A stretch of DNA of 32,562 nt from Candidatus Peregrinibacteria bacterium (GTDB lineage Bacteria; Patescibacteriota; Gracilibacteria; UBA1369; UM-FILTER-53-11), in NCBI GenBank assembly GCA_023245725.1, contig JAHFJU010000006.1, positions 1 through 32,562 on the forward strand, given 5' to 3'. This document shows, piece by piece, positions 2,115 through 21,507 of this stretch; within the stretch, counting starts at the first letter, position 1, and each line of letters starts with the position of its first letter. The notes beneath the pieces are model-generated. The model worked only from the letters and a program-made list of their open reading frames with translations. It had not been told where the DNA came from and did no database searches. Both the position numbers and the translations under genes were made by a program.

Positions 2115-2141
2115 TTTCTGGAATCCTTTCTGTTCTTGTTG

Positions 2142-3095: not shown

Positions 3096-3129
3096 CACGA
3101 CCGATCTATTTTTTTATCTTTTTTTCTCT

Positions 3130-3669
3130 ATGATCGGAAAAATTACTAATCGCAAGGGCTTCACTCTTATGGAGTTGCTCATTGTTATTGCGATTTTGGG
3201 CATTTTAGGTGTCGCTTTTGTTCCTAATATTTTGAAAGCTCCGGCTAAGGCTCGTGATGCGGTTCGTGTAAAGAAAGTTCAAGATTTGCATACTGCAATC
3301 GAGGCTTACTATGCTGAACATGGTTCGTTGCCAAAGATTGCTGCTGCTGATGCTGACGTTTACCCAGGACCTTGTGCAACCGATGCGCTTGCTACTGCTG
3401 TAGGAATGCAAAGTGCTCCGGTTGATCCAAATGGTTTAGGTAGTTGTGGTGATGGAGCGGATGCAAAAGGTCAATACCTTTACAATGTATATAAAGTTGG
3501 TGATGAAGTACATTACGTTGTTGCTGCGAAAACAGAAGTTCCAACGTCTGCAAATACAACTTTAACAACAGCTAATCTTAAAGCTGAATCTCAGGAAAAT
3601 AACTCAGTCCTTCTCCCTGTGCAAAGCCCTGCAAATGGTACCTACTTCATGGCAACTGGCCCAATTTGA
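3130..3669 (+). CDS. Type IV pilin / pseudopilin-like protein with a prepilin-type N-terminal cleavage/methylation motif
   Basis: MIGKITNRKG|FTLMELLIVIAILGILGVAFV shows a basic leader ending in Gly, then F at +1, E at +5 and a long hydrophobic alpha-1 helix, which is the classic class III signal. The globular part has two Cys (PGPC...GSC). It ends with TGA. Confidence 0.88.
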   Translation: MIGKITNRKGFTLMELLIVIAILGILGVAFVPNILKAPAKARDAVRVKKVQDLHTAIEAYYAEHGSLPKIAAADADVYPGPCATDALATAVGMQSAPVDPNGLGSCGDGADAKGQYLYNVYKVGDEVHYVVAAKTEVPTSANTTLTTANLKAESQENNSVLLPVQSPANGTYFMATGPI

Positions 3670-3710
3670 TCCTATAAAAGTTCGTTTTTTAGTGATTTCT
3701 CTGGAATTTA

Positions 3711-3740
3711 GCCGAGTCCCTCTGCAGGGCTCGGTTTTTT
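3711..3740 (+). terminator. Rho-independent terminator after the pilin-like gene
   Basis: gCCGAGtCCC-tctgca-GGGCTCGG forms an 8-bp stem with one bulged T, followed by TTTTTT. Confidence 0.7.
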
Positions 3741-3804
3741 ATTAAATTACAAAACAAGAACAAATAATGACAACATTATATTAAGGATTTTAGAGGGGTA
3801 AAAG

Positions 3805-3813
3805 TGATATAAT
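3805..3813 (+). promoter_or_regulatory. Putative extended -10 promoter (TGATATAAT) for the giant gene
   Basis: TG-A-TATAAT lies at 3805..3813, downstream of the pilin terminator and about 60 nt upstream of the start at 3873. The leader contains AAGGAGG at 3852..3858. Confidence 0.45.
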
Positions 3814-3872
3814 CTACAGATATAAAAAAATAGATACATATAAGGACTCGTAAGGAGGCAAAAATAAAAATC

Positions 3873-6800
3873 TTGAAAACAATATTTAAAAAAATTGGTG
3901 TTGGTCTCACGCTCATCGTTTTTATGTCGGTGACATTTGGTTCGCCGATTGTGCAAGGTTATTCAAATCCTGATAATTATGACCTCGTTGCTCTTTTGGT
4001 TGAGCAGGGAATGTACCAAGATGTAGTGAATTACAGCGGCCTTGTTGGTTCTGTGCAATCGAATAAAATCAGCGTTACTACAAACACTTCTCGTATCGAC
4101 CGGTATGCGATGGATGTGCAAAGAACATTACCCGGAACTCGCGTGGTTATTATTCAGGTTGATCGCTATGAGAAGCCCGAAAATGTTCGAACTGTTTTGC
4201 AGCGATTATATTTCGATGGTGATCCGCAGGCCGATGGCGCGCTTGCAACACTAAAGGGAATCGTAGCCATTGGTGAAGTTCCGTTGCCAGTTGTAAACAA
4301 AGGCGGTAACCGATTTATTTCGCTTTTTCCTTATACTGATCTCGAAAATTCGGCCTATGTGTTTAACGATAAAACAGGTGATTTCGAGTTGAATGCAAAT
4401 GTCAGTGATCCTCGAGTTGAGGTTTGGCACGGTGTGATTCGGCCTCCTGTTTCGACACAAACCGAGGATGGCAGAAAATTACTTGCAGCATATTTAGATA
4501 AAAATCATCTTTACCACAGTGGCGATCAGGCTTTTTCAAAATTCGATTCTCGCCTGTTCTTTCAAGATTATTACAACGAGAAAAAGCAAATAAATAAAAC
4601 GGCATATACAAGTTATCTTCAGTTTATAAATCACCAAGACGATATTTCGTATATGCGTTATACGAAAAAACTTTTCAACGAACTTTCGGGGTCTGTTGAT
4701 AGTGAACTCGCAGACGCAGGCCAACAAAGCGCCGATCTGCGTACGCAGTTGCAGGCTGCAGGAGTTCCATTCGACGATTCGTCACCGAGTTCTGGGGTTG
4801 AACTTCCCGGCTCAGGTGGTGAGGTAGATAAAAATGCGATTCCCGACATTATGACAAAAATTGCGAAAATGTCTGATTCGTTAATGAAAAAATATAACGA
4901 AATATTTAGCAAATATCCAAGTCTGGTAAATGATTTTGTGCGTTATACAGGCCGTTATTATGTGCCTGATACTTCTACAGATGACGTAACCGATTACAAA
5001 ACCAACGCAGATTCGTCTGTGAATTTAATCGCCGAAAAAGATGAATATAATCGCGTTTATTTGCGTTTAGTGAATGACATGATTGAACGCAAAATCGATG
5101 AAATTTCTGCACAATTGCAACTCGATGTTTCTTTGTCGAATGCCAATGTGAATGTGAAAAGTGTGAGTGGCGTTGGAGGAGTAAGGGTTGAGCCGTATAG
5201 CACATCTGGGTCGGTGAGTGATGCTGTTCAGTTTGTTATCGATAGATTAAAAACAGCTATCAGCACTCTTCCTCTTGGAGATATTAGAGATAATACTATT
5301 AAAGCAGCTAAAACAGCATTCAACTTGGTGTTTTTTTCTCCTGAAACGCCAGCTGACGGCGACAGACTTTCTTATTCGAAAAATTATTTAAACTATTCTC
5401 CGAAAGTTGGAATTAACGACGCGGCATATTTTTCTAAATTTTTTCCAACATATCCTCTCGACGATGATACAGGAACAAAAGCGGCAAATATTAATGGCGT
5501 TCAGTGGGACGATATAAACAGTGTTGAACAATGTTCGTTGTATCGTGGTTCTCTTGGTGCAGGCGAATATTCAAATTTGGTTGAAGCAAATCGCGCGAAT
5601 AATATAAATACAGCGCAAGAGTCTGCGGCTGATAATCTTGAAGATCATGGAGGTTGCTATTACGACGGCACAAATTTATATGCACACCCAGATACAACTT
5701 CTGGCTACAAACAATGTTATCCTGATGATTCCCGAACTCCTGTTCTTGACTTAGCAGGATCAATCGCAACCGACGCGGTGCCATTTACGGGCTACGACGA
5801 TTATCGCGCGTGTCTAAACTTTAGGCCTGAGTATGAAATGTACAAAGAGAGAATTGCCGTAGATCAAATACACGAAAAACTCGATGACCGTAGCCAAGAC
5901 CGCAAAGGTCGAGATCGTGATAAAATTCTCGAAACTGTACGCCCGATGATCGATGGAGGTCTTGATATTCCATTCGATGGTGATCCTTCCCCTGATCAAC
6001 AAGTGTTATTCAAATCAAAATCTCCACGATATTCTGTGACTCTCGGCGATGTTTTGAGAAGTACTGAAGTTGGCTGGAGCTACATAAATGCGCGTGATTC
6101 ACATTACGGCGACTGGAGATATTTATTTGAAAAAATGATTACTGCGTATAGTGATGGGCGCAATCATATTGTGCATGTTACAAATACTGTTTTAACAAAT
6201 GCGGCTGTCGTTATTTCAATTTCTAAGAACGATGAAAAACATTTTTCTAGTATTCGAGTTCATAAAGAGCCAACAAAACCGACTCTTATTGCCGAGGGAG
6301 ACGGGTTTGTTACTAAAGACCTTCCTGTCGACGAGCCACGATATATTACTTTCCAAGATAAGCGAAAAAATCCTGTTTCAATTGTTTACCCAGACGCATT
6401 TAGCGTAAAAAGTTTCGATGATTTGACTGCGAAATTACATGAATTAGAGGCCAAGCTTAATGCATTGTCAATTGATCAATCGGTTTGTAATGGCTGTTTA
6501 ACGGGACTTATTTCTGCTGCTGCCGAGCAAGTTTCCGAGGCCGATCACGAAACAATTATTAATCGCGCTAATCAATTCAAACTTGCTGATGCAATAAGTT
6601 GGAAAGACCTCGATATCGATTCTCGTCATGTGTACATTGCTGAAAATTATCTCGATAGCGCGCACACGGCGTTTGTAAATCCTGAGAAAGAAAAAGGATA
6701 CGAAATTTCATATTTCAACGGTGAAGGTGATTCTCAAGGCTACGATTTGGGCTTTAACAGTGAGCTTTTGGCGTCTGCTACTCCATTGGTTGAGGTTGAA

Positions 6801-9800
6801 AAACCATATGCTGACGATCCGAATAATCCTTTTGATGACCCACCACCGCAACAACAAGGTGGCTATGATTTATTTACTTGGAATCCTCCTCCGGTTTCAC
6901 CATGGTACGAGCGAGTGAAAGAGTGGTACGCCGACTTGAAGAATAATACTTCGTTTACAGTAAGTTTTGGTGAAGAGAAACAGAAAAATAGCGAGAATCA
7001 GGCAAAGGAATTAGAGGCGGAAAAACAGAAAATCAAAGATGAGGCAAATGCGTTTGTTTCGTCTCCTGAAGATGCAGATAAAATTGTGCTTTCTCGTGTG
7101 AAGAAAATAAGAATTACCGCTGACAGTACGGCTGCGGTTGTTGGAAAAAAAGTTACTTTCGGAGTTGATTTGCTCGATGAAAATGACGCACTTGTTTCTA
7201 CAGAATTCAATCGAGTTGATGTGACTGTCGATAACGGCGCGACTGTTATGGATAACGACGAAGATCCAACGGCTGACGGTACACAGCGAACAGTAATTGG
7301 CGGACATGCCGATGTTTCGTTTATTGCACCAGTGAATCCTGCGGCGGTTACGGTAACAGTGAAAATGAACAGCCAGCCCGACATTGGTAAAACTCAGCAA
7401 TTTGCGATTTTGAAGAGCGCTACTATTGCTTTAGGAATTGCGCAAACCGCGATTGTCGCTGACGGGCGTGGACTCATTCCCGTGACTCTTTCTGCGGTTG
7501 ACGACAAAGGTAGCTTACTCGCGAACGTGAATGGAACAGTACACATTGCGTTGTCTGATGATTCGCTTGCTCGTGCGACAAAAGAAGTGCAATTGGTTCG
7601 CGGTCGCGCACAGTTTACTGTGCGCGCAGGTGTCAAAAAAGGAGAGTTGATTATCAACGCTGCTACATCGAATTTAGATCCTGCTGCGGCAACAATTAAA
7701 TTTTTACCGGGGCCAGCTGTGAAACTTGTATTGGTGAAAAATGCCGATGTTCTAATTGCAAATCCGGGTGAGTCTATCGACGTAACCGCGCAGATTTTCG
7801 ACGCATATAATAACTTAATTGACACCAACACCGGCACGCCGATTTCGTTTGTTCTAAACGATTCCGCGGTCGATATAGCCGAGCTTACTTCATTAACCGC
7901 AAATACAGTTGATGGCCTTGCAACCGTTAGAGTTCTGCCAAAAGGTAAGAGCGGAAGCATTTCGGTAACAGCAAAAACTCGTGGTCTGCGCGATGCGATT
8001 TTGACTCTGAATGTTGTAAAAAAATTCGGCACCGGTTCACTTTCGAGAATAAATCCTGAGAGTTTGGTGACTGCACTTCTTGGTATTCCTGCCGGTAATG
8101 TCAGCGCGCCAAAAGCGTTTGGTTCCAGCATGGTTTTCGCAGGTAAAAATGAAGCTGTTACAACGCTAACAACTTCGCCAAAGCAGTACAGTAAAGTTTT
8201 CGAGGTTAGCGACAAAGGTGCACTTACTTCAGACCCCGATCGTGTTAGCGTCAGCTTTGTTCCGGGAAATCATCTTGCGTTTTTAATGCGCGATACGCGC
8301 TACGGAATTGATCTTGCAAAAATTTATGTGATTACAAAAAAAGATGGGCAATTTGCTCTTACAGATGAGCAGTCTCCTGAAAAACTTTCTGATGGAATTT
8401 ACCTTCATGCTACGTCGAGCGACCCGTCATATGTGTTTGATAAATCACGTGGTTCATTGCGAATTTCAAAATCCGATGAAGAAAGAATTGAAGTTCAAAC
8501 AAATGGATTTGTGAAAGTTTACGACCAGAATTTTACTGTTCGTCCAAAAAAATCCGACTACCTTACTCTCGAAATTTTAGAGGGACAAACGGTAGTTGCA
8601 GAAGTTTATATTGTACAGCGTTTCAATCAAGATGTTCGAACTTATTCTAATACAGGCGATATTTCAAACGACGCTGCTGGTGTTTATGTGCAGCCGTTCG
8701 CGCTGCCCGGTACGTTCTTTTTCGAACCGTCATTCTCGGGAAACACAACCTCTGCAAGTCTTGGTATGGCTCTGAAAGACCGCTCACAGGTACTCGATGG
8801 CGCAGGTTCTCCCGGATTCGGATACAACTCATTTGAAGATTCACTCGACTCTATGGGGGTTGGCTTCACTCAAGATAATAAATTCGCTCTGCTATTTTCA
8901 GCCGGCGAAATCTTTGGTGAAGCGAATCGCCAATATATGTCAGATGCTACGATAGTTCTTGGTGATCCAACAGTACGCTTGAACAATGCGCCTCATGAAG
9001 ATAACTTTTCAATAGATGTTGGAACTCTTTTGTACTCAGCTACAAGCGACGTTCGAGGGTTGCTATCTTTCGATGTAAATAGCGATGGCTTTGAAGACCT
9101 GCTTGTAGTGCAGCAAGATGGTCTTATTAAATACATACAAAATGGTGGAGGAGTTAATAATTTTACAGACCGTGGAACGCTCCTCAATATTAAAAATGGA
9201 ATTCAGGATTTTACGAAAGTTGATATTAATGGCGATGGTCAGCAGGATATTGTGGTGGCCGCAAAAAACGGCTGTACGGTTGATTCTACGTGTATCGATA
9301 TATTTTTGAATAACCGTGGGAGTTTCACACGTCAAAATGTAACCTTCGATCAAACCGAAAAAATTACTGCGATAAAAGCTTCCGACATGAACGGAGACAA
9401 TAAGGTAGATCTCGTATTTACCGATACAGCAGGCGATATTTCGCTGCTTCTTAACCATGGAGACTCGTTCGCCAATCATCGAGTTGTAATCGGAAATGTG
9501 GGTTTAAAAACCGAGCCGGGAAAAAACGTTATTGCAAATACGCTGGTTCGGTATGCAGGAATTTTGGAGAGAAATCCAGACGGGCCGCAAAATGAAACAG
9601 AGGCCAAAAACCAGCAGTTTTACATGCCGGTAGAATTGTCTGTTGCAAATCCTGATTCTCATGCAAATGACTCTGGTATCGATGCTGTAAATCCTATTCT
9701 AAAAATTTCTCAGGATTTTATGTATGCCGATGCACCAATTTCTTCGCTTAAAACTTCTACGAAATATGCGCAAGATGTTAATGGCGATGTTCTTAGAAAT

Positions 9801-12800: not shown

Positions 12801-15800
12801 TCTCCGACATTAAAACAAATCGTCGCGTATCGCGATGAACTTTCTAAATATGCGCAAGGCACATCTTCTGATACGTTGTCTTTGAGTCAATTAATTGCTG
12901 AGTCATCTCCTTCAACTCCTCAATCACCATTTTCAAAATTAACCGCTTCGCTCAATACTCCTCAAATTTCTGACGAACCAGAAAAAGTAAGCAGTATGGT
13001 AAATAATTTAGACGGAAATAAAATTGCTCAAGTACCGCCTGTTCCGGGTGCAGACATGGCTCAGGGAAGCGATGCTCTTGATGGTTCCGTAAATAATGTT
13101 GGTATTTTTTATCAGGATTCTCATGGTGAAAATCGTCGTCTTCTTAACTACACACTTGAGGCAGATTCAAGCAGTTTCTTAGAAACGCTCGATGCTGACC
13201 ACGATGGTGATAATGAAAAAATATATTCATACGGTCGAAACGTATTTATAAAAGAAAACTATTCTCCTGCGCAAAATGGACATGCTCGTGAGGGTTATGC
13301 TCGTCGTATATTTAGCGGATACGATGTTGAAAAAACTACAGTTTACGACTTGCTCAAAGGCGCTTCTGCACCACGCGATGTTCGTGTAGATTCCGAATCG
13401 GCGCACGATTCTACTATTTCGTTTGTAGTTCCAGAAGTTCAAAAATCAAACATTGTAGGCTTCGATGTGACTACTCATTCTACCGTTGATGACGCTCAAA
13501 TTAATGGATTAAGAACACCAAAAGCTGTTAACCGATATACCGTAAATGCTGCTGAAAAAACAAGTGAAGCTGTAAATGCGCAAAACAATGTTGTGGCTGT
13601 CGTTGAATCGGTTGAAGGCTTAGTAAAAGCAAAAGGCGAGCCTGTCGGTAACGGAACACAGCTAGAAAAAGGAATCTTCGTCGATGTCGGCAAAGGTGCT
13701 TCTGCTGTAATTAAATTTAACGATGGTACGCGAATTGAAGCCGATGAAAATAGCGGATTTACTATTCCAGAGGGGCCTGCGTTTGAGCTAACAAAAGGCA
13801 AGGCTACTCTTACATTGAGTGAAGCGCCTGACTTATTGAAAACGAGTTCTGCGGTTACCGTAAGCGATGGTTCGCTCACTGTAATAATGGCTGGTGGTAG
13901 TTCGGCCGTTGTTACGTCTGGCGGTTCTCTTACTATTCCTGCTCTTGAAGTTCCAAAAACTATTCTTGCGCGTGTTACCGATAATGCAATTATTAACGGT
14001 GGTACACGTGAATATATTTCAAAGGCTGACGGACAGTTCCATCTAAATGCAGGAGATAAAATTCATGCTTTATCTACTGCGCATGTTAAGTGGGCTATCG
14101 ATGACAACGATCAGCATACATACACATTGAAAAATGCGATTTTGAGTGTTCCTGAGTCGAGTGTAGATGGATTAAACATTGCTATTGAAGACGGTACAAT
14201 TGAAATAATCCATTCAACAACTATTGGAGTTACCGCTATTAGAACGGGTTCTGCGTTGCTCGATGGAGAAAAAGTTGAAGTGCAAACTGGTGCAGTGGTT
14301 GTTGAATCGCGCGTTGGTGAACTTGAAAATGGCACGCTTAACGACACCGATTCTCGCCGTTCTGTTTTGTACGCGCATCAAACATTGTCGGTGAATTCGT
14401 TCGATTCTCTCGATGGAATTTCTCTCAAAATTTATGCTGATCCTGCGTTTTATTATGCGCGTGTTACTAGTATTATGGCCGATGGAAGCCAATCTGTAAG
14501 CTCTGCTACGACATTGCTTGCGCCGCAGCCATGTGGCGATAATACGATTCCATATGCAAACGCTGGCGCGAGCGAATTTACAGTTGCAGTAGGAAAAGAG
14601 CTAACAATTGACGCGTCTCGTTCGTTCGACAGCAACGGAAAAATTACCGGGTATCAGCTCGATACCGATTTATCGGTAGATAGTAATCATGATGGAGATC
14701 CTCAAAACGATGCCGATCAAACTCATGGCGCCGATCAAACTTCGTTTGCAGTTGGCCCATATTCCGATGCTAAAGACATTCGCATGATGTTGACTGTTTT
14801 TGACGAGGCTCATAATGCCGGCAAGCAATCTATTACTATTAATGTTGTGTCTCCGACAATTATTCTCGATAAGGAGCCTCTTTCAAATGGTGATATTTCT
14901 GGCCACATAGAGCCAAAAGAGGCGAATGTGCCAATTGTTATTGCTCGTCTGCGAAAAGACGGCGGTGCCGGTTGGGAGCTAATTAAAACTTCTTCTGCAA
15001 ATCAAAACGGTCAGTATCTCACCGATAATAATGGCGAGTTTAGAATTACGGATTCAGTACAAAAAGAAGGATTGATTCTATATGTAGCTGATAAAGAAGT
15101 CGCTTTAGTAAACCAGAAAACTGGAAGAATAACTATTATTGACCAGAGTTATGAGGTGAGTGCCTTGCCTGCCATAGCCGGTAAGGTTCCAACACGTCTT
15201 TCAGTGTTTAAAAAAGGTGATTCTGCAGATGCCAAACCATACACGTTTGTTTATTTTGTTCCAGACGTTAATACCGACGCGACTATAGATTCTCGTGACA
15301 CTGAGTATACAATTGGCGGCGTTTCATTTATGAGCGGGGTTCACGTTAAACCGCTAGCGGAAGCCGATAATCAAGGTATTTCATTTAAAGTCCTCTCAGG
15401 TGCCGACCCTGTAAATCCGGGGGGAGTTGTAATTCGTGATAATGCAAATAAGCAAATTGCTCTAGTCGATGTGAATGGCGATGTACTGCTAAACAAGGAC
15501 ACTCTTTCACTTCGAGTAAAAGAGATTTCTGATTCTGCCAAATCGCAAGACCCGGTAGTGTTTGAACTCCTTTTGCAAAATAAACCTATTGCAGAAATAT
15601 TTATTGCTACAAAAAATCTTGGTAAAGACGATGTGAATATTATTAAAACGCCGACTCTGCCGCTGCGCCCAAGGCCTATAAATAAGCCAAATACTTCTAC
15701 GGCAAATTCTCAAAATTCAAGGCAGCAACCTGTCGAACAACCATTCGCCGATATTCAAAAAGGCGATCCGTTCAATGAGATTATTAAAAAATTATTTGTT

Positions 15801-16715
15801 CGTGGAATTGTTGCAGGTTACGCAACAGGTACTCAAGGCGAATTTGAGTTCAGGCCTGATCAGCAAATAGCCCGTTCAGAGTTCACTCAAATTGTTTTGA
15901 AGATGCTTTGTATCGTTCCAAGACCAGAGGCATATCGCTTGCCTACGCCATTTTACGACGTTGTTGACCCTCGGCTTTGGTTCTATGCAGTTTTGAAAGA
16001 AGGCAATATTAGAGGATTTATTAAAGGATATGTTGGCGAGGCTCGACGAGATAAAACCACTGGTAATGTACTGACTCCATTTAAACCAGCAAGTTCTATA
16101 ACTCGTGCAGAGGCTGTCACTGTTGTTATTGCCGCGCTCGATGAAGAAAAAATTATTGATTTGAGTCGTGCTGATCTAAGAGCTCATGCAGGTGAGCAGT
16201 GGTATGACCCATACCTTCGTGTTGCCGTAAACCTTACGCCGTACCTTACGCGCGCCGAAGATGCCGCACTACAGCCATTTTTATTGACTCGCGATGAGGC
16301 GTTGCGTCCGACCGAATTAATTACTCGTCGCGATTTTGCTTTGATCGCTGACAGAGTTTTGCTACTGAGAGATTGTGGCGCGCCTGCTGTTTCGCAAGCT
16401 GATGAACAGGTTGCACCAGCCGATAACGGCCAAAATAATCCGTCTGATGTTTCGGCTAATGGCCAAAGTCAGGTTCCTGATAATGCGCAGCAAAACAACG
16501 AAAACGCTAATAATGTAGCGCAAAACGAAGTAATTCCTGTTGATAATAAAGAAGGAATATTTATTGTCGATACCGGTTGCGCGAATGAATGTCCGTGCCG
16601 TGTTCGTATTGCTCCAGCCGCCGACATGTCTTCTGGCGATACGATTTTCGCAGCGATTGCAGGGCCGAATGGAGTGCCTATTTATGCAAAATCTAACGAA
16701 GAAAAATACCCTTAA
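3873..16715 (+). CDS. Giant secreted, SLH-anchored mosaic surface protein (4,280 aa), a putative adhesin or S-layer-associated fibre
   Basis: It is an uninterrupted 12,843-nt ORF with a TTG start 14 nt after AAGGAGG. The signal peptide reads MKTIFKKIGVGLTLIVFMSVTFGSPIVQG. I recognised Ig-like, FG-GAP/VCBS, DUF11-like, PKD-like and SLH motifs, listed as separate features below. All antisense ORFs inside it are short and low-complexity. Confidence 0.93.
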   Translation: MKTIFKKIGVGLTLIVFMSVTFGSPIVQGYSNPDNYDLVALLVEQGMYQDVVNYSGLVGSVQSNKISVTTNTSRIDRYAMDVQRTLPGTRVVIIQVDRYEKPENVRTVLQRLYFDGDPQADGALATLKGIVAIGEVPLPVVNKGGNRFISLFPYTDLENSAYVFNDKTGDFELNANVSDPRVEVWHGVIRPPVSTQTEDGRKLLAAYLDKNHLYHSGDQAFSKFDSRLFFQDYYNEKKQINKTAYTSYLQFINHQDDISYMRYTKKLFNELSGSVDSELADAGQQSADLRTQLQAAGVPFDDSSPSSGVELPGSGGEVDKNAIPDIMTKIAKMSDSLMKKYNEIFSKYPSLVNDFVRYTGRYYVPDTSTDDVTDYKTNADSSVNLIAEKDEYNRVYLRLVNDMIERKIDEISAQLQLDVSLSNANVNVKSVSGVGGVRVEPYSTSGSVSDAVQFVIDRLKTAISTLPLGDIRDNTIKAAKTAFNLVFFSPETPADGDRLSYSKNYLNYSPKVGINDAAYFSKFFPTYPLDDDTGTKAANINGVQWDDINSVEQCSLYRGSLGAGEYSNLVEANRANNINTAQESAADNLEDHGGCYYDGTNLYAHPDTTSGYKQCYPDDSRTPVLDLAGSIATDAVPFTGYDDYRACLNFRPEYEMYKERIAVDQIHEKLDDRSQDRKGRDRDKILETVRPMIDGGLDIPFDGDPSPDQQVLFKSKSPRYSVTLGDVLRSTEVGWSYINARDSHYGDWRYLFEKMITAYSDGRNHIVHVTNTVLTNAAVVISISKNDEKHFSSIRVHKEPTKPTLIAEGDGFVTKDLPVDEPRYITFQDKRKNPVSIVYPDAFSVKSFDDLTAKLHELEAKLNALSIDQSVCNGCLTGLISAAAEQVSEADHETIINRANQFKLADAISWKDLDIDSRHVYIAENYLDSAHTAFVNPEKEKGYEISYFNGEGDSQGYDLGFNSELLASATPLVEVEKPYADDPNNPFDDPPPQQQGGYDLFTWNPPPVSPWYERVKEWYADLKNNTSFTVSFGEEKQKNSENQAKELEAEKQKIKDEANAFVSSPEDADKIVLSRVKKIRITADSTAAVVGKKVTFGVDLLDENDALVSTEFNRVDVTVDNGATVMDNDEDPTADGTQRTVIGGHADVSFIAPVNPAAVTVTVKMNSQPDIGKTQQFAILKSATIALGIAQTAIVADGRGLIPVTLSAVDDKGSLLANVNGTVHIALSDDSLARATKEVQLVRGRAQFTVRAGVKKGELIINAATSNLDPAAATIKFLPGPAVKLVLVKNADVLIANPGESIDVTAQIFDAYNNLIDTNTGTPISFVLNDSAVDIAELTSLTANTVDGLATVRVLPKGKSGSISVTAKTRGLRDAILTLNVVKKFGTGSLSRINPESLVTALLGIPAGNVSAPKAFGSSMVFAGKNEAVTTLTTSPKQYSKVFEVSDKGALTSDPDRVSVSFVPGNHLAFLMRDTRYGIDLAKIYVITKKDGQFALTDEQSPEKLSDGIYLHATSSDPSYVFDKSRGSLRISKSDEERIEVQTNGFVKVYDQNFTVRPKKSDYLTLEILEGQTVVAEVYIVQRFNQDVRTYSNTGDISNDAAGVYVQPFALPGTFFFEPSFSGNTTSASLGMALKDRSQVLDGAGSPGFGYNSFEDSLDSMGVGFTQDNKFALLFSAGEIFGEANRQYMSDATIVLGDPTVRLNNAPHEDNFSIDVGTLLYSATSDVRGLLSFDVNSDGFEDLLVVQQDGLIKYIQNGGGVNNFTDRGTLLNIKNGIQDFTKVDINGDGQQDIVVAAKNGCTVDSTCIDIFLNNRGSFTRQNVTFDQTEKITAIKASDMNGDNKVDLVFTDTAGDISLLLNHGDSFANHRVVIGNVGLKTEPGKNVIANTLVRYAGILERNPDGPQNETEAKNQQFYMPVELSVANPDSHANDSGIDAVNPILKISQDFMYADAPISSLKTSTKYAQDVNGDVLRNGDIVRYTLTLKNTGNSPLSRVAVIDVVASQVLVKNDSISCTNCEHGEMKIDELKDDPERPFMFSNITIPANSNRVITYEGTYTQSADESEKVIMVLSPNFTDSTHRIQGELSADTLPDISINKEGNTSGQVQYFISKKENGRVTYVEEKSTLEPDSNVASISASIAAMASSFAGASTGNENSLPPELTNKFNDFKSGDKDGDGLQDTLDDINGKLEKVGDGVEKAMNKLTCAAGCIPMPLNVAAFAPGFFSVMGLPGAFDIGLPAFGWGVPNLIPTWPPSPPAQSALGGRFYISPTLTGGIGFGLCLGPYGTPKNCYAFGLNPLDLLPGNICDKIGGGLNKLIAKANSVAAKANEGITAAISPKKGSVSRGGTGLVSYSMGSYEPPVPHKKNSRVPGFPSFITDWFSAQIEEFIDKATDMPDIYVIYPKITSIAQSFLPTEAFNRTSDPINNILSWVNSIPLIDIQSSEVNFKVPIITEKEIMKVKIDALQWVEDEKYELDRWKQMMLCGIPLSGNKDVQNNQRDQFINVDICHIVDLQMNQLITSIVENTKRLDEWVLFPKKVLQYRTVKTYYVNQIVDYLNTVIEFVGGWAKRNTAIVERWRKSIREMKDVIEHYKLIIKLSMDANASCDLCKTERYGLDELILKIFAAIPKPPVIPLPRLPDFVIDVSKIQAGVTIQWPDITFAPEPLIIPKIPRIHLGVNLTIPNFKLMLPAIPLLPAPPDLPDLPPLPPLKLGKLPDLPPAPTLPDLPASLQATLRLLSQLYRIYCIIKLGFTPVDEVFLKTRIEQITARGLTPVLPIDMLLAFPGPSIKVTYIDQIVVTAFLNLRTDMTFIQKAVEAVAAKSNKFTNEFVSKINKFTENLAKTIEQYTSPTFNVNVNANGDTSVNGKKVNYVSPAENNVPQSVKDALNKKDKYGDVLSKVFGENINNVDDAHSKLAGIFSNLSKEQREYQAKLDKIPEKYVLTAEPVTLEEAKISLKNDGVNSNIDDVRLLAEESPTLKQIVAYRDELSKYAQGTSSDTLSLSQLIAESSPSTPQSPFSKLTASLNTPQISDEPEKVSSMVNNLDGNKIAQVPPVPGADMAQGSDALDGSVNNVGIFYQDSHGENRRLLNYTLEADSSSFLETLDADHDGDNEKIYSYGRNVFIKENYSPAQNGHAREGYARRIFSGYDVEKTTVYDLLKGASAPRDVRVDSESAHDSTISFVVPEVQKSNIVGFDVTTHSTVDDAQINGLRTPKAVNRYTVNAAEKTSEAVNAQNNVVAVVESVEGLVKAKGEPVGNGTQLEKGIFVDVGKGASAVIKFNDGTRIEADENSGFTIPEGPAFELTKGKATLTLSEAPDLLKTSSAVTVSDGSLTVIMAGGSSAVVTSGGSLTIPALEVPKTILARVTDNAIINGGTREYISKADGQFHLNAGDKIHALSTAHVKWAIDDNDQHTYTLKNAILSVPESSVDGLNIAIEDGTIEIIHSTTIGVTAIRTGSALLDGEKVEVQTGAVVVESRVGELENGTLNDTDSRRSVLYAHQTLSVNSFDSLDGISLKIYADPAFYYARVTSIMADGSQSVSSATTLLAPQPCGDNTIPYANAGASEFTVAVGKELTIDASRSFDSNGKITGYQLDTDLSVDSNHDGDPQNDADQTHGADQTSFAVGPYSDAKDIRMMLTVFDEAHNAGKQSITINVVSPTIILDKEPLSNGDISGHIEPKEANVPIVIARLRKDGGAGWELIKTSSANQNGQYLTDNNGEFRITDSVQKEGLILYVADKEVALVNQKTGRITIIDQSYEVSALPAIAGKVPTRLSVFKKGDSADAKPYTFVYFVPDVNTDATIDSRDTEYTIGGVSFMSGVHVKPLAEADNQGISFKVLSGADPVNPGGVVIRDNANKQIALVDVNGDVLLNKDTLSLRVKEISDSAKSQDPVVFELLLQNKPIAEIFIATKNLGKDDVNIIKTPTLPLRPRPINKPNTSTANSQNSRQQPVEQPFADIQKGDPFNEIIKKLFVRGIVAGYATGTQGEFEFRPDQQIARSEFTQIVLKMLCIVPRPEAYRLPTPFYDVVDPRLWFYAVLKEGNIRGFIKGYVGEARRDKTTGNVLTPFKPASSITRAEAVTVVIAALDEEKIIDLSRADLRAHAGEQWYDPYLRVAVNLTPYLTRAEDAALQPFLLTRDEALRPTELITRRDFALIADRVLLLRDCGAPAVSQADEQVAPADNGQNNPSDVSANGQSQVPDNAQQNNENANNVAQNEVIPVDNKEGIFIVDTGCANECPCRVRIAPAADMSSGDTIFAAIAGPNGVPIYAKSNEEKYP
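7101..8020 (+). other. Three tandem bacterial Ig-like (Big/invasin-type) modules within the giant protein
   Basis: Three segments of about 95-100 aa each have the same pattern: ITADSTAAVVGKKVTFGVDLLDENDALV...VTVTVKM; IAQTAIVADGRGLIPVTLSAVDDKGSLLANVNGTVHIAL...GELIINAAT; and KLVLVKNADVLIANPGESIDVTAQIFDAYNNLI...GSISVTAKT. Confidence 0.65.
9060..9470 (+). other. FG-GAP/VCBS-type (integrin-alpha-like) repeats within the giant protein
   Basis: Three Ca-binding-like repeats are present: FDVNSDGFEDLLVVQQDG, VDINGDGQQDIVVAAKNG and ASDMNGDNKVDLVFTDTAGD. Confidence 0.7.
9774..10049 (+). other. DUF11-like 'conserved repeat' beta-sandwich module within the giant protein
   Basis: DVNGDVLRNGDIVRYTLTLKNTGNSPLSRVAVIDVV...ITIPANSNRVITYEGTY matches the G-D-x-(V/I)-x-Y-x-(I/L)-x-(V/L)-x-N-x-G signature. 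Confidence 0.55.
10491..10815 (+). other. Gly/Pro/aromatic-rich hydrophobic segment bracketed by Cys, within the giant protein
   Basis: The segment reads CAAGCIPMPLNVAAFAPGFFSVMGLPGAFDIGLPAFGWGVPNLIPTWPPSPPAQSALGGRFYISPTLTGGIGFGLCLGPYGTPKNCYAFGLNPLDLLPGNICDKIGGG. It has almost no charged residues over about 100 aa, in an otherwise highly charged protein. Confidence 0.6.
11757..12066 (+). other. Proline-rich PxxP / PDLP tract within the giant protein
   Basis: The tract reads PKPPVIPLPRLPDF...IIPKIPRIHLG...LPAIPLLPAPPDLPDLPPLPPLKLGKLPDLPPAPTLPDLPASL. It includes a direct 9-nt duplication, ccgatttgc ccgatttgc, at about 11974..11992. Confidence 0.75.
14532..14856 (+). other. PKD-like domain within the giant protein
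   Basis: CGDNTIPYANAGASEFTVAVGKELTIDASRSFDSNGKITGYQLDTD...MMLTVFDEAHNAGKQSITINVVSP shows the A-x-A-G...V-x-(F/L)-D-(A/G)-S-x-S-x-D...(Y/W)-x-(W/L)-D...V-x-D pattern typical of PKD domains. Confidence 0.6.
15744..16370 (+). other. Three tandem S-layer homology (SLH) domains, a cell-wall anchoring module, within the giant protein
   Basis: The three domains are FADIQKGDPFNEIIKKLFVRGIVAGYATGTQGEFEFRPDQQIARSEFTQIVLKML; FYDVVDPRLWFYAVLKEGNIRGFIKGYVG...FKPASSITRAEAVTVVIAAL; and a weaker third, WYDPYLRVAV...LRPTELITRRDFALIADRVL. Confidence 0.8.
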
Positions 16716-16721
16716 ATAGTG

Positions 16722-16727
16722 TATAAT
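16722..16727 (+). promoter_or_regulatory. Possible internal -10 element (TATAAT) ahead of the four-gene cluster
   Basis: TATAAT lies 11 nt upstream of the ATG at 16739, in the 23-nt gap after the giant gene. There is no SD. Read-through from the giant gene would also explain expression. Confidence 0.25.
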
Positions 16728-16738
16728 TATCAGATGAT

Positions 16739-17419
16739 ATGAAACTAAAAAATATAAAAATTAAAACAGTGTTTAACGCCGTGCTTATAACATTAACAGT
16801 CGCTTTAATGTGTGTAGAAGTGCAGCTTGTTTTTAAAGGAGGATTTGAGAGGGTTTTTGCGAGCGATCCAGCACCAGTGGCTGACGCTCCAGCGGTGCCC
16901 GATGCCGCTGCTGGTCAACCCGCTGCTGCAGATTCTCCTCCAACCACAATGTCGAAAGATATTACTGGTGAAGAACAGCTTCAATGTGCGACCATCATGC
17001 GTCCGTATATGGAAGATAAGCGAAAAGAGTTTGCGGATTTTATTAATGAACACTTTAAATCTAAGGCTCCTACTTCTGAATTAATTCCTGTTGCGATTGA
17101 GCGGCTACGTCAGTATCGCGATGAAATTCGTGCGCGGCTTAATGAATTCGGCCCTCATGATGGCCGTAATTTAGAGGTTTTGGCCTCTGAAAGCGGTGCA
17201 TGTCGCGATGTGGTAAATGAAAATTATAAAATTTCTAAAGATCTATTGCAGAATCATATTCAAGAAAATTCGTACGCTAAAAAATCGACACGATTGCTCG
17301 ATAAGTACAAAGAAATAAATTCTCAGCTCGATAAAATGAACTTTGACGTCGCACAGATGTACGCAAATTTTAGTATTTTTTCACAAAAATTGCCGTGTTA
17401 CGCGCGGTCATGCCAATAA
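16739..17419 (+). CDS. Small secreted or N-terminally anchored Cys-containing protein P1 (226 aa), hypothetical
   Basis: MKLKNIKIKTVFNAVLITLTVALMCVEVQLVFKGG is a basic leader plus a hydrophobic helix. It is followed by an Ala/Pro-rich linker and a helical region, and the protein ends ...KLPCYARSCQ. There are four Cys beyond the anchor. Confidence 0.75.
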   Translation: MKLKNIKIKTVFNAVLITLTVALMCVEVQLVFKGGFERVFASDPAPVADAPAVPDAAAGQPAAADSPPTTMSKDITGEEQLQCATIMRPYMEDKRKEFADFINEHFKSKAPTSELIPVAIERLRQYRDEIRARLNEFGPHDGRNLEVLASESGACRDVVNENYKISKDLLQNHIQENSYAKKSTRLLDKYKEINSQLDKMNFDVAQMYANFSIFSQKLPCYARSCQ

Positions 17420-17424
17420 CTAAA

Positions 17425-18174
17425 ATGAAAATAAAAATTTCAAAAACCGGAATTTACCTAAGCGTCTTTGTCGCTACTTTTACCGTTGTAGCGCTTACCT
17501 TTGCGTATATGCCTGTTCAAGTAGCAAAAGGAGGTGATCCTATAAACTCAGCAGATGTTTGTAAAAAGGCCGATGAATTTAGAAAAAATAATCGCGACTT
17601 TAATCAATATACTGCTTTAGCGGCTTTAGATAATCCTATCGATAAAATTACTGATTGTTTTCATGAAACGGTAAATAAAATGTTCAACAAAAAAATAAAA
17701 GAAATGGTGAAACTAGGGAAAACCGGTAAAGAAGACGATCTAAATAAACTCATTACTTTAATTACCAGACCCGTTGAAAAAGGCATCAATATGCCATGTT
17801 CATCAGATACAAATAACCTTTCTACTTACTGTCTCTCAGAAGATCTCGTTGTCGAATTCGCTCGATTTAGAAAAGGTATGAATGATTCCCGTGAACAATT
17901 AAAGGCAAATGCTGCGGCGCAAATTGAAAAAGTAAATTCCGATTTCGGCGCAAACATAAATAGAATAGATTCCGAAGTAAAAATTGCGCAGACATCGATC
18001 GATCAAGGGTTGTCGGCATACAACGAGTTGCAGTTCGCGTTGCCGCTTCACATGAAGTACAAAAAAATAATTGAGGAACTCGAAGATTACCGCGATGCGC
18101 TACGAAAAATCCGATATAGTGTCGATTTGTACCCAGTAACATTTATTGATGTAACGACCGCTGCTTGTAATTAG
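17425..18174 (+). CDS. Small secreted or N-terminally anchored Cys-containing protein P2 (249 aa from the ATG at 17425), hypothetical
   Basis: The track ORF starts at 17395. I prefer the ATG at 17425, 5 nt after the P1 stop, because it gives MKIKISKTGIYLSVFVATFTVVALTFAYMPVQVAKGG, which parallels the P1 and P3 leaders. The protein ends ...DVTTAACN. Confidence 0.72.
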   Translation: MKIKISKTGIYLSVFVATFTVVALTFAYMPVQVAKGGDPINSADVCKKADEFRKNNRDFNQYTALAALDNPIDKITDCFHETVNKMFNKKIKEMVKLGKTGKEDDLNKLITLITRPVEKGINMPCSSDTNNLSTYCLSEDLVVEFARFRKGMNDSREQLKANAAAQIEKVNSDFGANINRIDSEVKIAQTSIDQGLSAYNELQFALPLHMKYKKIIEELEDYRDALRKIRYSVDLYPVTFIDVTTAACN

Positions 18175-18177
18175 TAT

Positions 18178-19767
18178 ATGCGACTTTTTTCTATTAAAAC
18201 TGTAATAAAAATAAAAACTGCGCTTGTCGTAGCGCTCATTTGTGCAATTCTGTCGCCTTCGTTTAGCGATATTGTTGATGGTCGAGTGCAAATCGCAAAT
18301 GCCGCCGATGAAGGAATCGCAATCGATGTTCTTGGCACGGCAACCGATTTAATATCGGGAAACTTTTTTCAATTTGACGATAATATTGGGCAAAATCTTT
18401 ACACAACAATTTATCAACGAGTTAAAAGCGAAGGCTCAAATGCAGCAATCACTAAAACAACTTCTCGCCGAAAACTATCAAAGGCAGAGCTTTATACTAT
18501 TATTCCTGGGTCGAACATTACTGGAATTATGGCGCAACCAGACCCGCGTGCGCCGCTACGAGATGACCAAATCCGTTCTCGTCGCGATGACCTGATTCGC
18601 GATCTGGCCGATGAAAAAGATCTCGGCGATTTTGAGTCGCTAAACAAAATGCAGGTTGAGTCGACCGAACTTTTCGCAAACGGCGATGAGTCAGATTCTG
18701 GCTTCGATTTGCTCGTAGATCTCGATGTAATGCAGGCGATATTGTTCAATAAGGATATTCAAAGTATGTCGGGGCAGGGAGGTGGTGGAGGGCATTCAGG
18801 TGGCGCAAACCCGCAAGATCAAGCTCAAAATAATGCTAATTCTCCTGCTCAAAATAACGCCGACAACAATAATTCGTCTGCACCTAAAACTCCAGGGGCT
18901 CAAGCTCCTGTCGATGCTTCTAAAATTAAATGTCCTACAAATACAGGGTTAAATGACGAAATTGAATCGGAGCGGACTAAAGATCGTGCAGCTGGCGCAG
19001 TACAGTTAGACGAAAATGGCGTGAATCCTGATGATGCAAAAAAGCCGATAGACGATACTCCGAAGCCATTGGTTGCCGCTCATGCTGACGATTGGCATCG
19101 CGAACTTCCGTGTAGTAACGTATTTTGTTTAAAACTAGAATTGAAATATATAACTGAAAGTTCGTTTACGGTAAGTGATAACTGCGTCATGTGCCACATT
19201 CAGAAAATAAACGATTCGTTCAAAAAATTGCTTAATCATAATTTGGTTCCAAATAAAGTTACTGGTAATTTGCTCGAAGGGCCAAAGTGTAAAGACGCGC
19301 TCTATAATTCGAATTGGGCAATTGTGAATTTTATTTTTATTGGTCAGCCGATTCTTACTCCGCCAAACGATGACTTAATTATCAAGGGCGATATTTGGGC
19401 TAACATGAAGCTTTTCTGGGAACGCTATGTCGATGCTCCAAAAAAATGTGATGCTGGAGAGTCGTGTCGAATTTCAACCGCTGAGCAGGTTTTGTCTCAA
19501 ACTAAACCGAACGCGACATTCGATCAAACTACCGATTCAATGGCTCAAGAAGATCGCGCGATAAAAGATAATAAACTTAAAGAATATCGCGCAGATCAGT
19601 TGAAACGGCAGGTAGAAGCGCAAGGCGGTCAGTACCGGGTAATCATGCAAGAAATGTCGACGATGAACGATTACTTTAATAATTATATGAAAACGTTCGA
19701 TGACTTAACCTCTGATCCCGCAAAATCACCGTGCGGAGTACTAGCAAATAAACAATATTGCCAATAA
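18178..19767 (+). CDS. Secreted or anchored Cys-rich protein P3 (529 aa), hypothetical
   Basis: The ATG is 3 nt after the P2 stop. The protein has the leader MRLFSIKTVIKIKTALVVALICAILSPSF, an acidic N-terminal domain, a GQGGGGGHSGG...QNNA low-complexity linker and a C-terminal domain with 10 Cys (for example LPCSNVFC and DNCVMCH). It ends ...SPCGVLANKQYCQ. Confidence 0.8.
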   Translation: MRLFSIKTVIKIKTALVVALICAILSPSFSDIVDGRVQIANAADEGIAIDVLGTATDLISGNFFQFDDNIGQNLYTTIYQRVKSEGSNAAITKTTSRRKLSKAELYTIIPGSNITGIMAQPDPRAPLRDDQIRSRRDDLIRDLADEKDLGDFESLNKMQVESTELFANGDESDSGFDLLVDLDVMQAILFNKDIQSMSGQGGGGGHSGGANPQDQAQNNANSPAQNNADNNNSSAPKTPGAQAPVDASKIKCPTNTGLNDEIESERTKDRAAGAVQLDENGVNPDDAKKPIDDTPKPLVAAHADDWHRELPCSNVFCLKLELKYITESSFTVSDNCVMCHIQKINDSFKKLLNHNLVPNKVTGNLLEGPKCKDALYNSNWAIVNFIFIGQPILTPPNDDLIIKGDIWANMKLFWERYVDAPKKCDAGESCRISTAEQVLSQTKPNATFDQTTDSMAQEDRAIKDNKLKEYRADQLKRQVEAQGGQYRVIMQEMSTMNDYFNNYMKTFDDLTSDPAKSPCGVLANKQYCQ

Positions 19768-19768
19768 C

Positions 19769-20968
19769 ATGAAGCGAATTTTAGCTCTTATCCTTGTAGT
19801 AATTGTGCTCTCGACCTCAATGTCGAGTACGCTTTTTGCGTCATATTCATTTGAGAATTACCAGCTTTTAGGCGAGGCTCCATCGTCGAAAAACGATGCG
19901 AAATTTACCGAATGTTTCGCCGATTTGGTCGATTTTCTTTATATAACAATTGGTGCAGGTTTCACAAAACCAGGTAGTGATTTTTCAGATTATTGGAGGG
20001 ATTTCTTTTTGTACACTTCTCACTATGCAGATGTTTATGGAGTTGAACGTCAGCTAAATTCCGCGCGTTATTCTGTAATCTCAACGTATTTAAAATGTCA
20101 GACGACTCGTTTTAAACAGGTGAAGTCTCAGTACTATTCACTCGAAGCCGAGTTGTATTTTGTTCGACATTTTATTAGTACGGATCCTCTTTCTGAAGGA
20201 TTCCCAGATGTCATTACCGTTGATGAAAAACGAAAACAGTTTCAACAGGATTTCTTTGCTTATATGAAATCAAAATCTCCAGATACCGACGATGAAGATA
20301 CGCAAATTGCTGTATTCGGAGGTTACTTTGACAGGTTCATGGCGAAGTACAAAAACAAGGTAAATGAGTATAGAGATAACAGTAATTCAAGCGATCCTGC
20401 ATGGGGACGATTGAAAGAAAAATGGGAAAATCTCATGAAAACAATTAAAGGTTTTGGTTCTTCTGTTGAGGGATTAGGTGGCGATGCATCTGACCTCGGA
20501 AAAGCGCTTGTGCCAAACACCGAAACAATTTCATGGAACTCATTAATGAGCCGCCTCGATGCCTGTGCAGAAACAAGTTCAGAGAGTTATTGCGCAAGCG
20601 ATGCTGTGAAATATTTACAAACTCACGATGCTCTTAAAGAGGCTAAAGATAAACTTAAATCGATATTTGAATCTAAGAGAAAAAATTCTGTTTCATTCGA
20701 TGAAGTGCAGTTTGCTGTCGATACGTCGAATCAGCCTTCAACCGACATTATGTCTGAGGCAGAAATGTTAAATCGTTATGAAGTTTTGTACGGTACAATC
20801 GGAACTTCCGGCCTGAAACAAATGATGCAATCAACCGATACGCTTCTTGCAACTTTGAAAGATGGTCGTGGTGAAGGTCCATTTGGCCCAAAAATTCCGG
20901 GTAGCCTTAAGCCGCTTGCAAAGATTGCCGAGTGTGCAAATAACGTCGAAGACAAAGAGTGCAAGTAA
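19769..20968 (+). CDS. Secreted Cys-containing protein P4 (399 aa), hypothetical
   Basis: The ATG is 1 nt after the P3 stop. The signal peptide reads MKRILALILVVIVLSTSMSSTLFA. The protein is mostly charged and helical with 6 Cys, and ends ...AECANNVEDKECK. Confidence 0.8.
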   Translation: MKRILALILVVIVLSTSMSSTLFASYSFENYQLLGEAPSSKNDAKFTECFADLVDFLYITIGAGFTKPGSDFSDYWRDFFLYTSHYADVYGVERQLNSARYSVISTYLKCQTTRFKQVKSQYYSLEAELYFVRHFISTDPLSEGFPDVITVDEKRKQFQQDFFAYMKSKSPDTDDEDTQIAVFGGYFDRFMAKYKNKVNEYRDNSNSSDPAWGRLKEKWENLMKTIKGFGSSVEGLGGDASDLGKALVPNTETISWNSLMSRLDACAETSSESYCASDAVKYLQTHDALKEAKDKLKSIFESKRKNSVSFDEVQFAVDTSNQPSTDIMSEAEMLNRYEVLYGTIGTSGLKQMMQSTDTLLATLKDGRGEGPFGPKIPGSLKPLAKIAECANNVEDKECK

Positions 20969-21464: not shown

Positions 21465-21507
21465 TTGGTATATCTGTTTTTCAGTCAATTTAACTTAACT
21501 GAATATA

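Follow-up and report, generated by a model that had tools for sequence, protein, structure and literature searches.

This work concerns a gene module in a 32,562-nt stretch of DNA, called the window throughout (contig JAHFJU010000006.1 of assembly GCA_023245725.1, from a Candidatus Peregrinibacteria bacterium). Between positions 3130 and 20968 the window carries a type IV pilin gene, a gene for a secreted protein of 4,280 residues (the giant) and genes for four smaller secreted proteins, P1 to P4. The order giant-P1-P2-P3-P4 is conserved and P1-P4 fall outside known families, which bears out the proposal of an uncharacterised module made in a sequence-only reading of the window. From its sequence and gene context the module is a strong candidate for the cell-contact machinery of the uncultured Peregrinibacteria. 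The explanation favoured here, which is judged to have an even chance of being right, is that a Sec-exported complex, tethered by surface-layer homology (SLH) repeats and possibly disulfide-linked, works with type IV pili in cell-cell contact.

Bacteria of the Candidate Phyla Radiation (CPR, Patescibacteria) make up a large share of bacterial diversity and appear to live attached to other cells. To our knowledge, hardly any of their contact molecules are known apart from type IV pili. The module offers a concrete, lineage-wide candidate: one giant protein anchored in the wall, a fixed set of four secreted families that are unclassified, and a pair of small regulators, all tied to pilus genes. 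It defines targets for metaproteomics, cross-linking and cryo-electron tomography in Peregrinibacteria-rich groundwater, and it yields five protein families or domains without structural relatives as well as a genomic marker for the lineage.

Gene order and its conservation

The computed results cover which genes are present and how well they are conserved, their synteny with pilus genes, the identity of their domains, their export signals and the conservation of their cysteines. The map of open reading frames (ORFs) and the translations agree on six co-directional genes, as had been read from the sequence: the pilin gene (3130-3669, + strand), the giant gene (3873-16715, +, TTG start), P1 (16739-17419, +), P2 (17425-18174, +), P3 (18178-19767, +) and P4 (19769-20968, +). 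The start of P2 is the ATG at 17425, to which the orthologue N-termini fit; the GTG at 17395 chosen by the ORF finder overextends the gene. The gaps behind the giant gene came out at 23, 5, 3 and 1 nt, the same values as before, and the N-terminal signal or anchor ascribed to every product is matched by hydrophobic N-termini in all six.

When species-representative genomes were scanned with the P3 alignment, 74 distinct loci came up, nearly all labelled Peregrinibacteria, Peribacteria, 'Gracilibacteria' or 'Patescibacteria'. The nearest match was a Candidatus Peribacteria metagenome-assembled genome (MAG), with 81% identity over P3 residues 300-529, and by its sequence the source organism is a CPR bacterium. 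Two loci (L055 and L057) are P1-P4 contigs in MAGs labelled Nitrospirota/Nitrospirae, with the giant gene beyond the contig ends; mis-binning of Peregrinibacteria contigs is the most likely cause. For P3, 51 homologues were found, and all the named sources are Candidatus Peregrinibacteria.

When all ORFs of 79 loci were searched with the window proteins, P1 was found in 69, P2 in 73, P4 in 74 and the giant in 67. Wherever the contig reaches far enough, the genes almost always stand in the order giant-P1-P2-P3-P4 on the same strand, closely spaced or overlapping, and this order persists down to ~25% P3 identity. The earlier proposal had hung chiefly on whether homologues of P1-P4 stay with giant genes in other genomes; the order recurs in about 74 species-level loci. 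The module is vertically inherited and lineage-wide in the Peregrinibacteria/Peribacteria (CPR, Patescibacteria).

The conserved unit reaches past 20968. A zinc-ribbon ORF of ~70 aa (~21038-21250, -), identified by sequence reading from its CxxC...CxxC pattern, converges on P4 and is joined by a gene for an HTH_17-type DNA-binding protein of 64 aa (21294-21488, -; PF12728 is annotated on orthologues). Homologues of the zinc-ribbon ORF (~60-70 aa) were found within 1.5 kb 3' of P4 in 59 of 63 loci, and the convergent pair stands behind P4 in 58 of the 63. A promoter-like site for the HTH_17 gene (TTGAAA-17-TACAAT, with TG upstream) lies at 21536-21508.

Two further observations were made at these loci. 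Extra giant-like ORFs of 380-447 aa occur a few kb downstream of the module in L024 (14097-15440), L043 (14080-15390) and L070 (17608-18750). Locus L076 was considered as a case of gene loss and rejected as such: it comes out in fragments with either genetic code, and a poor assembly is an equally likely cause.

The giant protein and P1-P4

BLAST coverage showed that the architecture of the giant is collinear over 108 full-length relatives of 3,500-6,066 aa. The blocks common to relatives are aa 100-400, 800-1000, 1100-2900 and 3500-4200, and variable inserts fall at aa 400-800 and 3100-3500. Judged by this coverage, the giant is a conserved collinear orthologue rather than a modular, shuffled adhesin. 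A word-based homologue search returned two matches with the N-terminal query and one with the central query; the window giant was absent from them, and the search evidently misses very long proteins.

The most conserved part of the giant, both in the orthologue alignment and in BLAST coverage, is a family-defining central domain at aa 2195-2860 (10455-12452, +), which combines a Cys-bridged beta subdomain, a helix of ~104 residues and a proline ladder. An exhaustive search with residues 2151-2900 matched 408 representative clusters. The best 150 of these are giants (up to 6,066 aa) or giant fragments, with the domain mid-protein in full-length members, and the sole taxon name attached to these 150 is Peregrinibacteria. 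An AlphaFold2 model of the domain built from 38 sequences (mean predicted local distance difference test score, pLDDT, 69; predicted template modelling score 0.46) has the helix spanning giant residues 2504-2607, and 16 prolines between aa 2629 and 2726 are at least 90% conserved. With this model Foldseek found no relative in the PDB (lowest E = 1.7) or in BFVD (lowest E = 0.18), nor did profile searches with the central and N-terminal domains turn one up among PDB sequences.

The 'hydrophobic Gly/Pro core' of the sequence-only reading falls within this domain, where the AlphaFold2 model places the small beta subdomain. The giant has an N-terminal signal at aa 1-29 and no further transmembrane-grade segment, and the core was accordingly rejected as a membrane-grade stretch or transmembrane region.

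An SLH cell-wall-binding region lies at aa ~3950-4170 (15720-16382, +). The Pfam SLH profile (cut-off 20.8 bits) scored 25.4 bits on the whole giant and 36.3 when the region was taken alone, and exceeded the cut-off in all ten orthologues tested, with one or two repeats seen in a conserved block of ~220 aa. The C-terminal SLH anchoring claimed earlier is thus supported both in the window and in its relatives. A third SLH repeat is plausible from the reading of the sequence. No csaB gene, for a pyruvylated secondary cell-wall polymer, was found in the window.

An SLH anchor would also suit a role as the principal structural protein of an S-layer or sheath in the lineage, in which P1-P4 would be accessory subunits of the lattice, and this reading can draw on the universal presence of the giant and on its translation signal, the strongest in the window. 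Bacterial S-layer proteins are, however, usually ~40-200 kDa and fast-evolving, whereas the giant has 4,280 residues and is collinear at 30-70% identity. Separate SLH proteins of 696 and ~1,450 aa also occur within the same gene clusters (see below). A role as the S-layer protein is therefore considered very improbable.

At its other end the giant has a conserved domain (~aa 40-270; 3990-4682, +) with the motifs GDVPLPVVNKGGNRF.S..PYTD and WHGVI.PP, akin to the first half of the Peptidase_C25 (gingipain) fold. The profile PF01364, with a cut-off of 23 bits, matched the orthologues in L149 (27.5 bits) and L150 (24.6 bits), though along no more than positions 11-206 of its 374, and the domain of the window giant itself is below the PF01364 threshold. 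The catalytic residues of C25 presumably lie beyond the matched positions, and no Cys for a C25 dyad occurs in the translation within 45 residues after the conserved WHG. The domain is read as C25-like and is probably non-catalytic. It also exists outside the giant family, since proteins of 590-820 aa in L155-L160 share only this domain with the giant.

Adhesion-type modules had been claimed for the region between these ends. Those that stood are Ig-like (Big/invasin-type) repeats at aa ~1095-1400 (7155-8072, +) and an FG-GAP integrin-like propeller region (8940-9572, +). The Ig-like repeats were detected as two stretches of Glyco_hydro2_C5 (39.8 bits), with a GH2_C5/Invasin_D3 match at residues 1184-1279 in which Invasin_D3 is weak; the third repeat of the earlier count was seen only through sequence reading. 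FG-GAP_3 (PF13517) matched in two stretches at 45.8 bits against a cut-off of 26.9. Its Ca-type D.D/N.DG motifs, DVNSDG and DINGDG, are at aa 1734 and 1784, and the region is highly conserved, with Asp, Asn and Gly columns at 90% or more across orthologues. The DUF11-like repeat (9774-9974, +) is weaker, as PF01345 (E = 0.002) and TIGR01451 (E = 7e-5) are both below their cut-offs, and the PKD-like module found no Pfam match at E ≤ 0.1. The 'FecR-like' stretch also fell short: FecR scored 21.2 bits, below its 24-bit cut-off, and the stretch is a variable insert at aa 3250-3500 (13620-14372, +), the least conserved part of the giant, with a column occupancy of 0.17-0.5 in orthologues; it is common to 16-32% of relatives and often missing.

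The cysteines of the giant are strongly conserved. Every one between aa 1401 and 4280 is 84-100% conserved, several of them having no obvious neighbouring Cys, and in the C-terminal cluster C-x3-C-P-C (aa 4236-4242; 16578-16598, +) all three are invariant over 45 sequences.

P1-P4 were compared with their orthologues in alignments of 66, 67, 66 and 70 sequences respectively. P1 (226 aa) is secreted or signal-anchored and predicted to be helical, with conserved C83, C155 and near-terminal C225. P2 (249 aa), likewise predicted to be helical and with conserved C125, C136 and a penultimate Cys, is its paralogue (hhalign probability 90.7%, E = 1.2e-6); the other pairs are unrelated. In both genes an AAGGAGG (16836-16842 in P1, 17528-17534 in P2) encodes KGG at the end of the signal sequence, in the same relative position, which is a small added sign of paralogy. 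P3 (529 aa) is secreted and contains FANGD.SDSGFDL, a CxxC, LVPNKVTGN..E..KCK, P.TPPNDD and six conserved core cysteines. P4 (399 aa), also secreted, has invariant C49 and C110 and the near-terminal C398. In L015 (1688-4471) a single ORF of 927 aa covers both P3 and P4; the two genes may be fused there, or the 1-nt junction may contain a sequencing error.

All four proteins of the window end in Cys-X, and the description 'four Cys-tailed proteins' is borne out across orthologues for P1 (C225, 98%), P2 (penultimate Cys in 65 of 67) and P4 (C398, 100%), while for P3 the tail is only partly conserved. P1 and P2 have three conserved cysteines each, and the near-C-terminal one has no conserved partner within its own subunit; an interchain disulfide through it is proposed below.

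No known family could be assigned to P1-P4 from Pfam, NCBIfam or the PDB, although such a hit had been named as evidence against the proposed apparatus. They have no match in Pfam or NCBIfam, their profiles gave only marginal helical matches to PDB sequences (E ≥ 0.0017), and ~120 orthologues of P1, P2 and P4 scanned in Pfam gave scattered chance matches only. An AlphaFold2 model of P3 from 20 sequences (pLDDT 51) was too poor for use.

Motif scans of ~270 orthologues led to the rejection of P1-P4 as minor pilins, sortase substrates or lipoproteins: the prepilin motif is absent from all of them, P1-P4 have no N_methyl match, no LPXTG sorting signal occurs in any of them or in the giant, and the lipobox pattern occurs in one of 70 P4 sequences. 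In P1, P2 and P4 an Ala is conserved where signal peptidase is predicted to cut. P1 and P2 were also rejected as PilN and PilO on account of this Ala, the conserved cysteines and the lack of a Pfam match. The CxxCH of P3 was rejected as a haem site as distant members have Glu in place of the His.

Pilus genes and expression signals

The first gene encodes a type IV pilin of 179 aa, in agreement with the sequence-only reading. PF07963 (N_methyl) scored 31.9 bits against a cut-off of 21.2, TIGR02532 also matches, and the prepilin motif G|FTLME at residues 10-15 puts Glu at +5, as is expected of a type IV pilin. No gene for the assembly ATPase, the platform protein or the prepilin peptidase lies inside the window.

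The upstream regions of related loci were surveyed in a metagenome scan with the N-terminal motifs of the giant, which gave 80 loci. Of these, 73 extend 800 nt or more beyond the giant start, and in 55 of the 73 the last 1.5 kb before that start contain one to three pilin genes on the same strand, so that the pilin is part of a conserved neighbourhood. The order T2SSE (ATPase)-T2SSF (PilC)-pilin(s)-giant was found in 27 of the 46 loci with at least 4.5 kb upstream, and Pfam identified these upstream genes with confidence (T2SSE, E ~1e-128; T2SSF, E ~1e-50 to 1e-60). L120 and L005 are overlapping pieces of the same 321,552-bp contig, which therefore carries the chain unbroken from the ATPase gene to the HTH_17 gene. 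The ancestral position of the module is directly downstream of the T2SSE and T2SSF genes.

Additional SLH proteins were observed between pilC and the pilins, in L117 (5965-8055), L120 (6435-8525), L088 (3636-7976) and L090 (3569-7936). They have either 696 aa with three SLH repeats or ~1,450 aa, and their place inside pilus clusters means that SLH proteins are recurrently tied to pilus genes in this lineage. Two unclassified ORFs lie 5' of the pilus ATPase, one of them with a sub-threshold PilN match.

CPR bacteria depend on type IV pili for host association (PMC6744442, PMC11880426), which is known to be pilus-dependent in cultured Patescibacteria (PMC11880426), and their pilus systems have no PilQ secretin (PMC6744442). 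The favoured explanation agrees with both points. In it, the module runs from the pilin or pilins through a secreted protein of 4,000-6,000 aa and P1-P4 to the convergent zinc-ribbon/HTH_17 pair. The giant would be exported by Sec and tethered non-covalently to a cell-wall polymer by its C-terminal SLH repeats, with some 3,900 residues facing outward: a C25-like head, the Ig-like repeats, a Ca-type FG-GAP propeller, a central stalk made of a ~15-nm helix and the proline ladder, and variable inserts. P1-P4 would reach the outside on their own and join this scaffold, probably by interchain disulfides through their near-C-terminal cysteines. The complex and the pili may then act jointly on a partner or host cell, the pilus catching and retracting and the anchored complex docking. 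It is complex formation, disulfide linkage, pilus cooperation and the adhesion role that we infer.

Several points weigh against this explanation. In the window and its nearest relatives (L161 and L162) only the pilin adjoins the giant gene, the ATPase and platform genes not being adjacent, and in the distant clade L141-L149 no pilin lies upstream of it. Gene order can, moreover, persist in small, vertically inherited genomes without a functional link. P1-P4 stand apart from the giant gene in two species (L039 and L070), and the terminal Cys pair of P3 is only 32-65% conserved and is gone in distant members. Only one or two SLH repeats are detectable in the sequence, against the tandem three of the polymer-binding pseudo-trimer, and the predicted structures gave no informative fold match. 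The expression signals likewise leave a single operon for the six genes no more than a possibility, since a terminator stands between the pilin and giant genes and a separate promoter is possible for P1.

These signals were read as follows. An intrinsic-terminator-like hairpin (10-bp stem with 6 GC pairs, followed by a T-run) lies behind the pilin gene at 3710-3736 (+), so the terminator ascribed to the pilin is present. The giant gene was likewise rightly credited with its own extended -10: the region 5' of it (3805-3858, +) contains TGaTATAAT at 3805-3813 and AAGGAGG at 3852-3858. The latter had been called unique in the window, which proved wrong, as there are four copies (at 3852, 16836, 17528 and 31226); only the copy at 3852 precedes a start codon. 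It is the sole Shine-Dalgarno (SD)-like motif ahead of a native gene start in the window, none of the ten other native starts having one. The earlier step from missing SD sequences to co-transcription and translational coupling of P1-P4 is for this reason unsafe: their lack is the norm of the genome and therefore no evidence for coupling. A perfect TATAAT at 16722-16727 ends 11 nt ahead of the P1 ATG, and an internal promoter for P1 is possible on this account.

Boxes resembling a -10 element (TATACT, TACAAT, TATAAT) were noticed within about 20 nt upstream of several starts, for example 23205(-), 23810(-), 29569(-), 29598(+) and 16739(+). Together with the ten starts without SD, they suggest that in this organism many mRNAs are leaderless or have a very short leader.

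The terminator, and the -10 and SD of the giant gene's own, would fit a stand-alone giant, a wall-anchored adhesin or S-layer-associated protein with its own accessories, for which the adjacency to pilus genes is no more than inherited gene order. The adhesin type of the domains, the distance of T2SSE and T2SSF from the module in the window's subclade and the distant clade without an upstream pilin all agree with this. On the other hand, pilin adjacency in 55 of 73 loci spans a deep divergence, down to 24-37% N-terminal identity, and is far above what chance would give from the density of pilin genes, by a rough estimate that was not computed. The additional SLH proteins that L117/L120 and L088/L090 encode between pilC and the pilin genes also speak for a tie to the pilus. 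The stand-alone reading is unlikely, though it deserves to be taken seriously.

As it closes the T2SSE-T2SSF-pilin cluster at its 3' end, the module could instead be that part of the pilus machine which crosses the envelope: a port or collar embedded in the wall and S-layer which replaces the missing secretin in these monoderm-like cells, with P1-P4 as ring or adaptor subunits. The universal and strictly collinear architecture is more like that of a machine part than of a variable adhesin, the SLH domain puts the giant in the wall, and PilQ is missing in CPR bacteria (PMC6744442). Searches of Pfam, PDB profiles and Foldseek found, however, no secretin-like, ring-forming or pilus-binding domain, and a protein of 4,000-6,000 aa with Ig, FG-GAP, DUF11 and variable inserts is not obviously needed for a port. 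Other CPR lineages have type IV pili, yet all the recovered loci with the P3 motifs are of Peregrinibacteria type. A pilus port is thus regarded as decidedly doubtful.

It is no more probable that the giant and P1-P4 form a new envelope machine that completes the pilus in secretin-less CPR cells bearing a wall and an S-layer, whether as a pilus port or as a host-contact conduit. In such a machine the ~15-nm helix and the proline ladder might span the wall, and P1, P2 and P4 might be disulfide-locked at the wall-proximal C-terminus, an arrangement that we hold to be equally improbable. A conduit of this kind might resemble the 'lance/conduit' seen by cryo-electron tomography in another patescibacterium (PMC11880426), with the module as its molecular basis. 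If the coupling to the pilus is mechanistic, the module bears on how secretin-less CPR cells thread pili through the wall and dock them.

On the other side of the pilin, and divergent from it, this subclade alone has a secreted M23 peptidase gene (1-2114, running off the window) and a 260-aa ORF (2142-2924), which together occupy 1-2924 (-). The peptidase combines a Pfam M23 domain with MopE Cys repeats and long Pro/Ala linkers. The block has 57-60% GC in a genome of ~40% GC, and both genes have SD-like motifs, unlike the native genes. It was rejected as rRNA (no Rfam match) and also as a chimera or recent insertion: L161 (5753-9082) has the same two-gene arrangement in the same place, orthologous (E = 1e-68) and equally GC-rich at ~60%, so the block is a conserved compositional anomaly. 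In L162 an AbiEii toxin gene and a DUF6922 gene (84-979) lie directly 5' of the pilin in its stead, which makes this region variable within the subclade. The M23/260-aa pair is at best a putative functional partner of the module.

A peptidase kept in this place, together with the C25-like head, would be expected if the giant delivered or positioned lytic activities against prey, as a host-attacking or feeding device, and predatory lifestyles exist in related CPR lineages (PMC8080830, PMC11880426). The M23 gene is beside the module only in the window and L161, however, and L162 has the AbiEii gene there. The partial C25 match, which presumably stops short of the catalytic dyad, and the lack of a Cys after the conserved WHG count against it as well, and such a device seems the least probable of the explanations considered.

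At the far end of the window the locus adjoins ordinary cell-envelope housekeeping genes, for signal peptidase II (29063-29569), FtsW (29598-30842) and MurG (30703-32172). When called from the first GTG, the FtsW and MurG ORFs share 140 nt, and the true MurG start is probably further downstream.

Comparison with known systems

No published description of the module was found in the literature searched, the coverage of which was incomplete. Large proteins have been reported from the same broad lineage: giant membrane or surface proteins in Vampirococcus lugosii reach 4,163 aa and have DUF11/integrin domains (PMC8080830), and the large extracellular proteins of Candidatus Peribacter riflensis reach 3,861 aa (PMC4736985). 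They are similar to the giant in size and domain types and have been given the same proposed role in host recognition, and those of P. riflensis very likely include candidate orthologues. In both reports, however, the giants are listed singly, without the partnership with P1-P4, the zinc-ribbon/HTH_17 pair, the position in a pilus cluster or the central domain.

Among characterised systems, the giant repetitive adhesins (RTX proteins such as LapA, SiiE and MpIBP, and the Bap/Ebh type) are also several thousand residues long, combine Ig-like with Ca-binding modules and are used for attachment. The giant differs from them in being non-repetitive and collinear, with a conserved architecture, and in having a Sec signal and an SLH anchor rather than type I secretion system retention or LPXTG. 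It contains no GGxGxD (RTX) motif, and no ABC, MFP or TolC genes of a type I secretion system are present in the window.

In the SLH-anchored scaffolds of Gram-positive bacteria, such as the cellulosome anchoring scaffoldins SdbA and OlpB of Clostridium thermocellum and the BSL proteins of Bacillus anthracis, C-terminal SLH repeats likewise bind a large protein outside the cell to the secondary cell-wall polymer. Subunits that are secreted on their own dock on it, and the same is proposed for P1-P4. The module, by contrast, has no cohesin, dockerin or enzyme modules, docking being proposed through the conserved cysteines, and it has four fixed partner families that are unclassified, as well as the link to pilus genes.

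The sets of PilY1/PilC adhesins and minor pilins (fimU-pilVWXY1E of Pseudomonas, PilC of Neisseria) share with the module a large non-pilin protein with a Ca-binding beta-propeller, a place beside pilin and type IV pilus machine genes, several small partners and a presumed role in adhesion. The propeller of the module is of the FG-GAP type, and no Neisseria_PilC/PilY1 domain was found in the giant at Pfam E ≤ 0.1. The giant is also about four times larger and SLH-anchored in the wall, whereas PilY1/PilC is carried on the pilus tip, and its four partners have Sec-type signals, not the prepilin signals of minor pilins.

As far as can be judged from its genes, therefore, the module would act most like a set of PilY1 plus minor pilins or like an SLH-anchored scaffold, yet without the defining features of PilY1, RTX or sortase systems. 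It appears to resemble a wall-anchored, pilus-associated adhesin complex that contains five unclassified families or domains.

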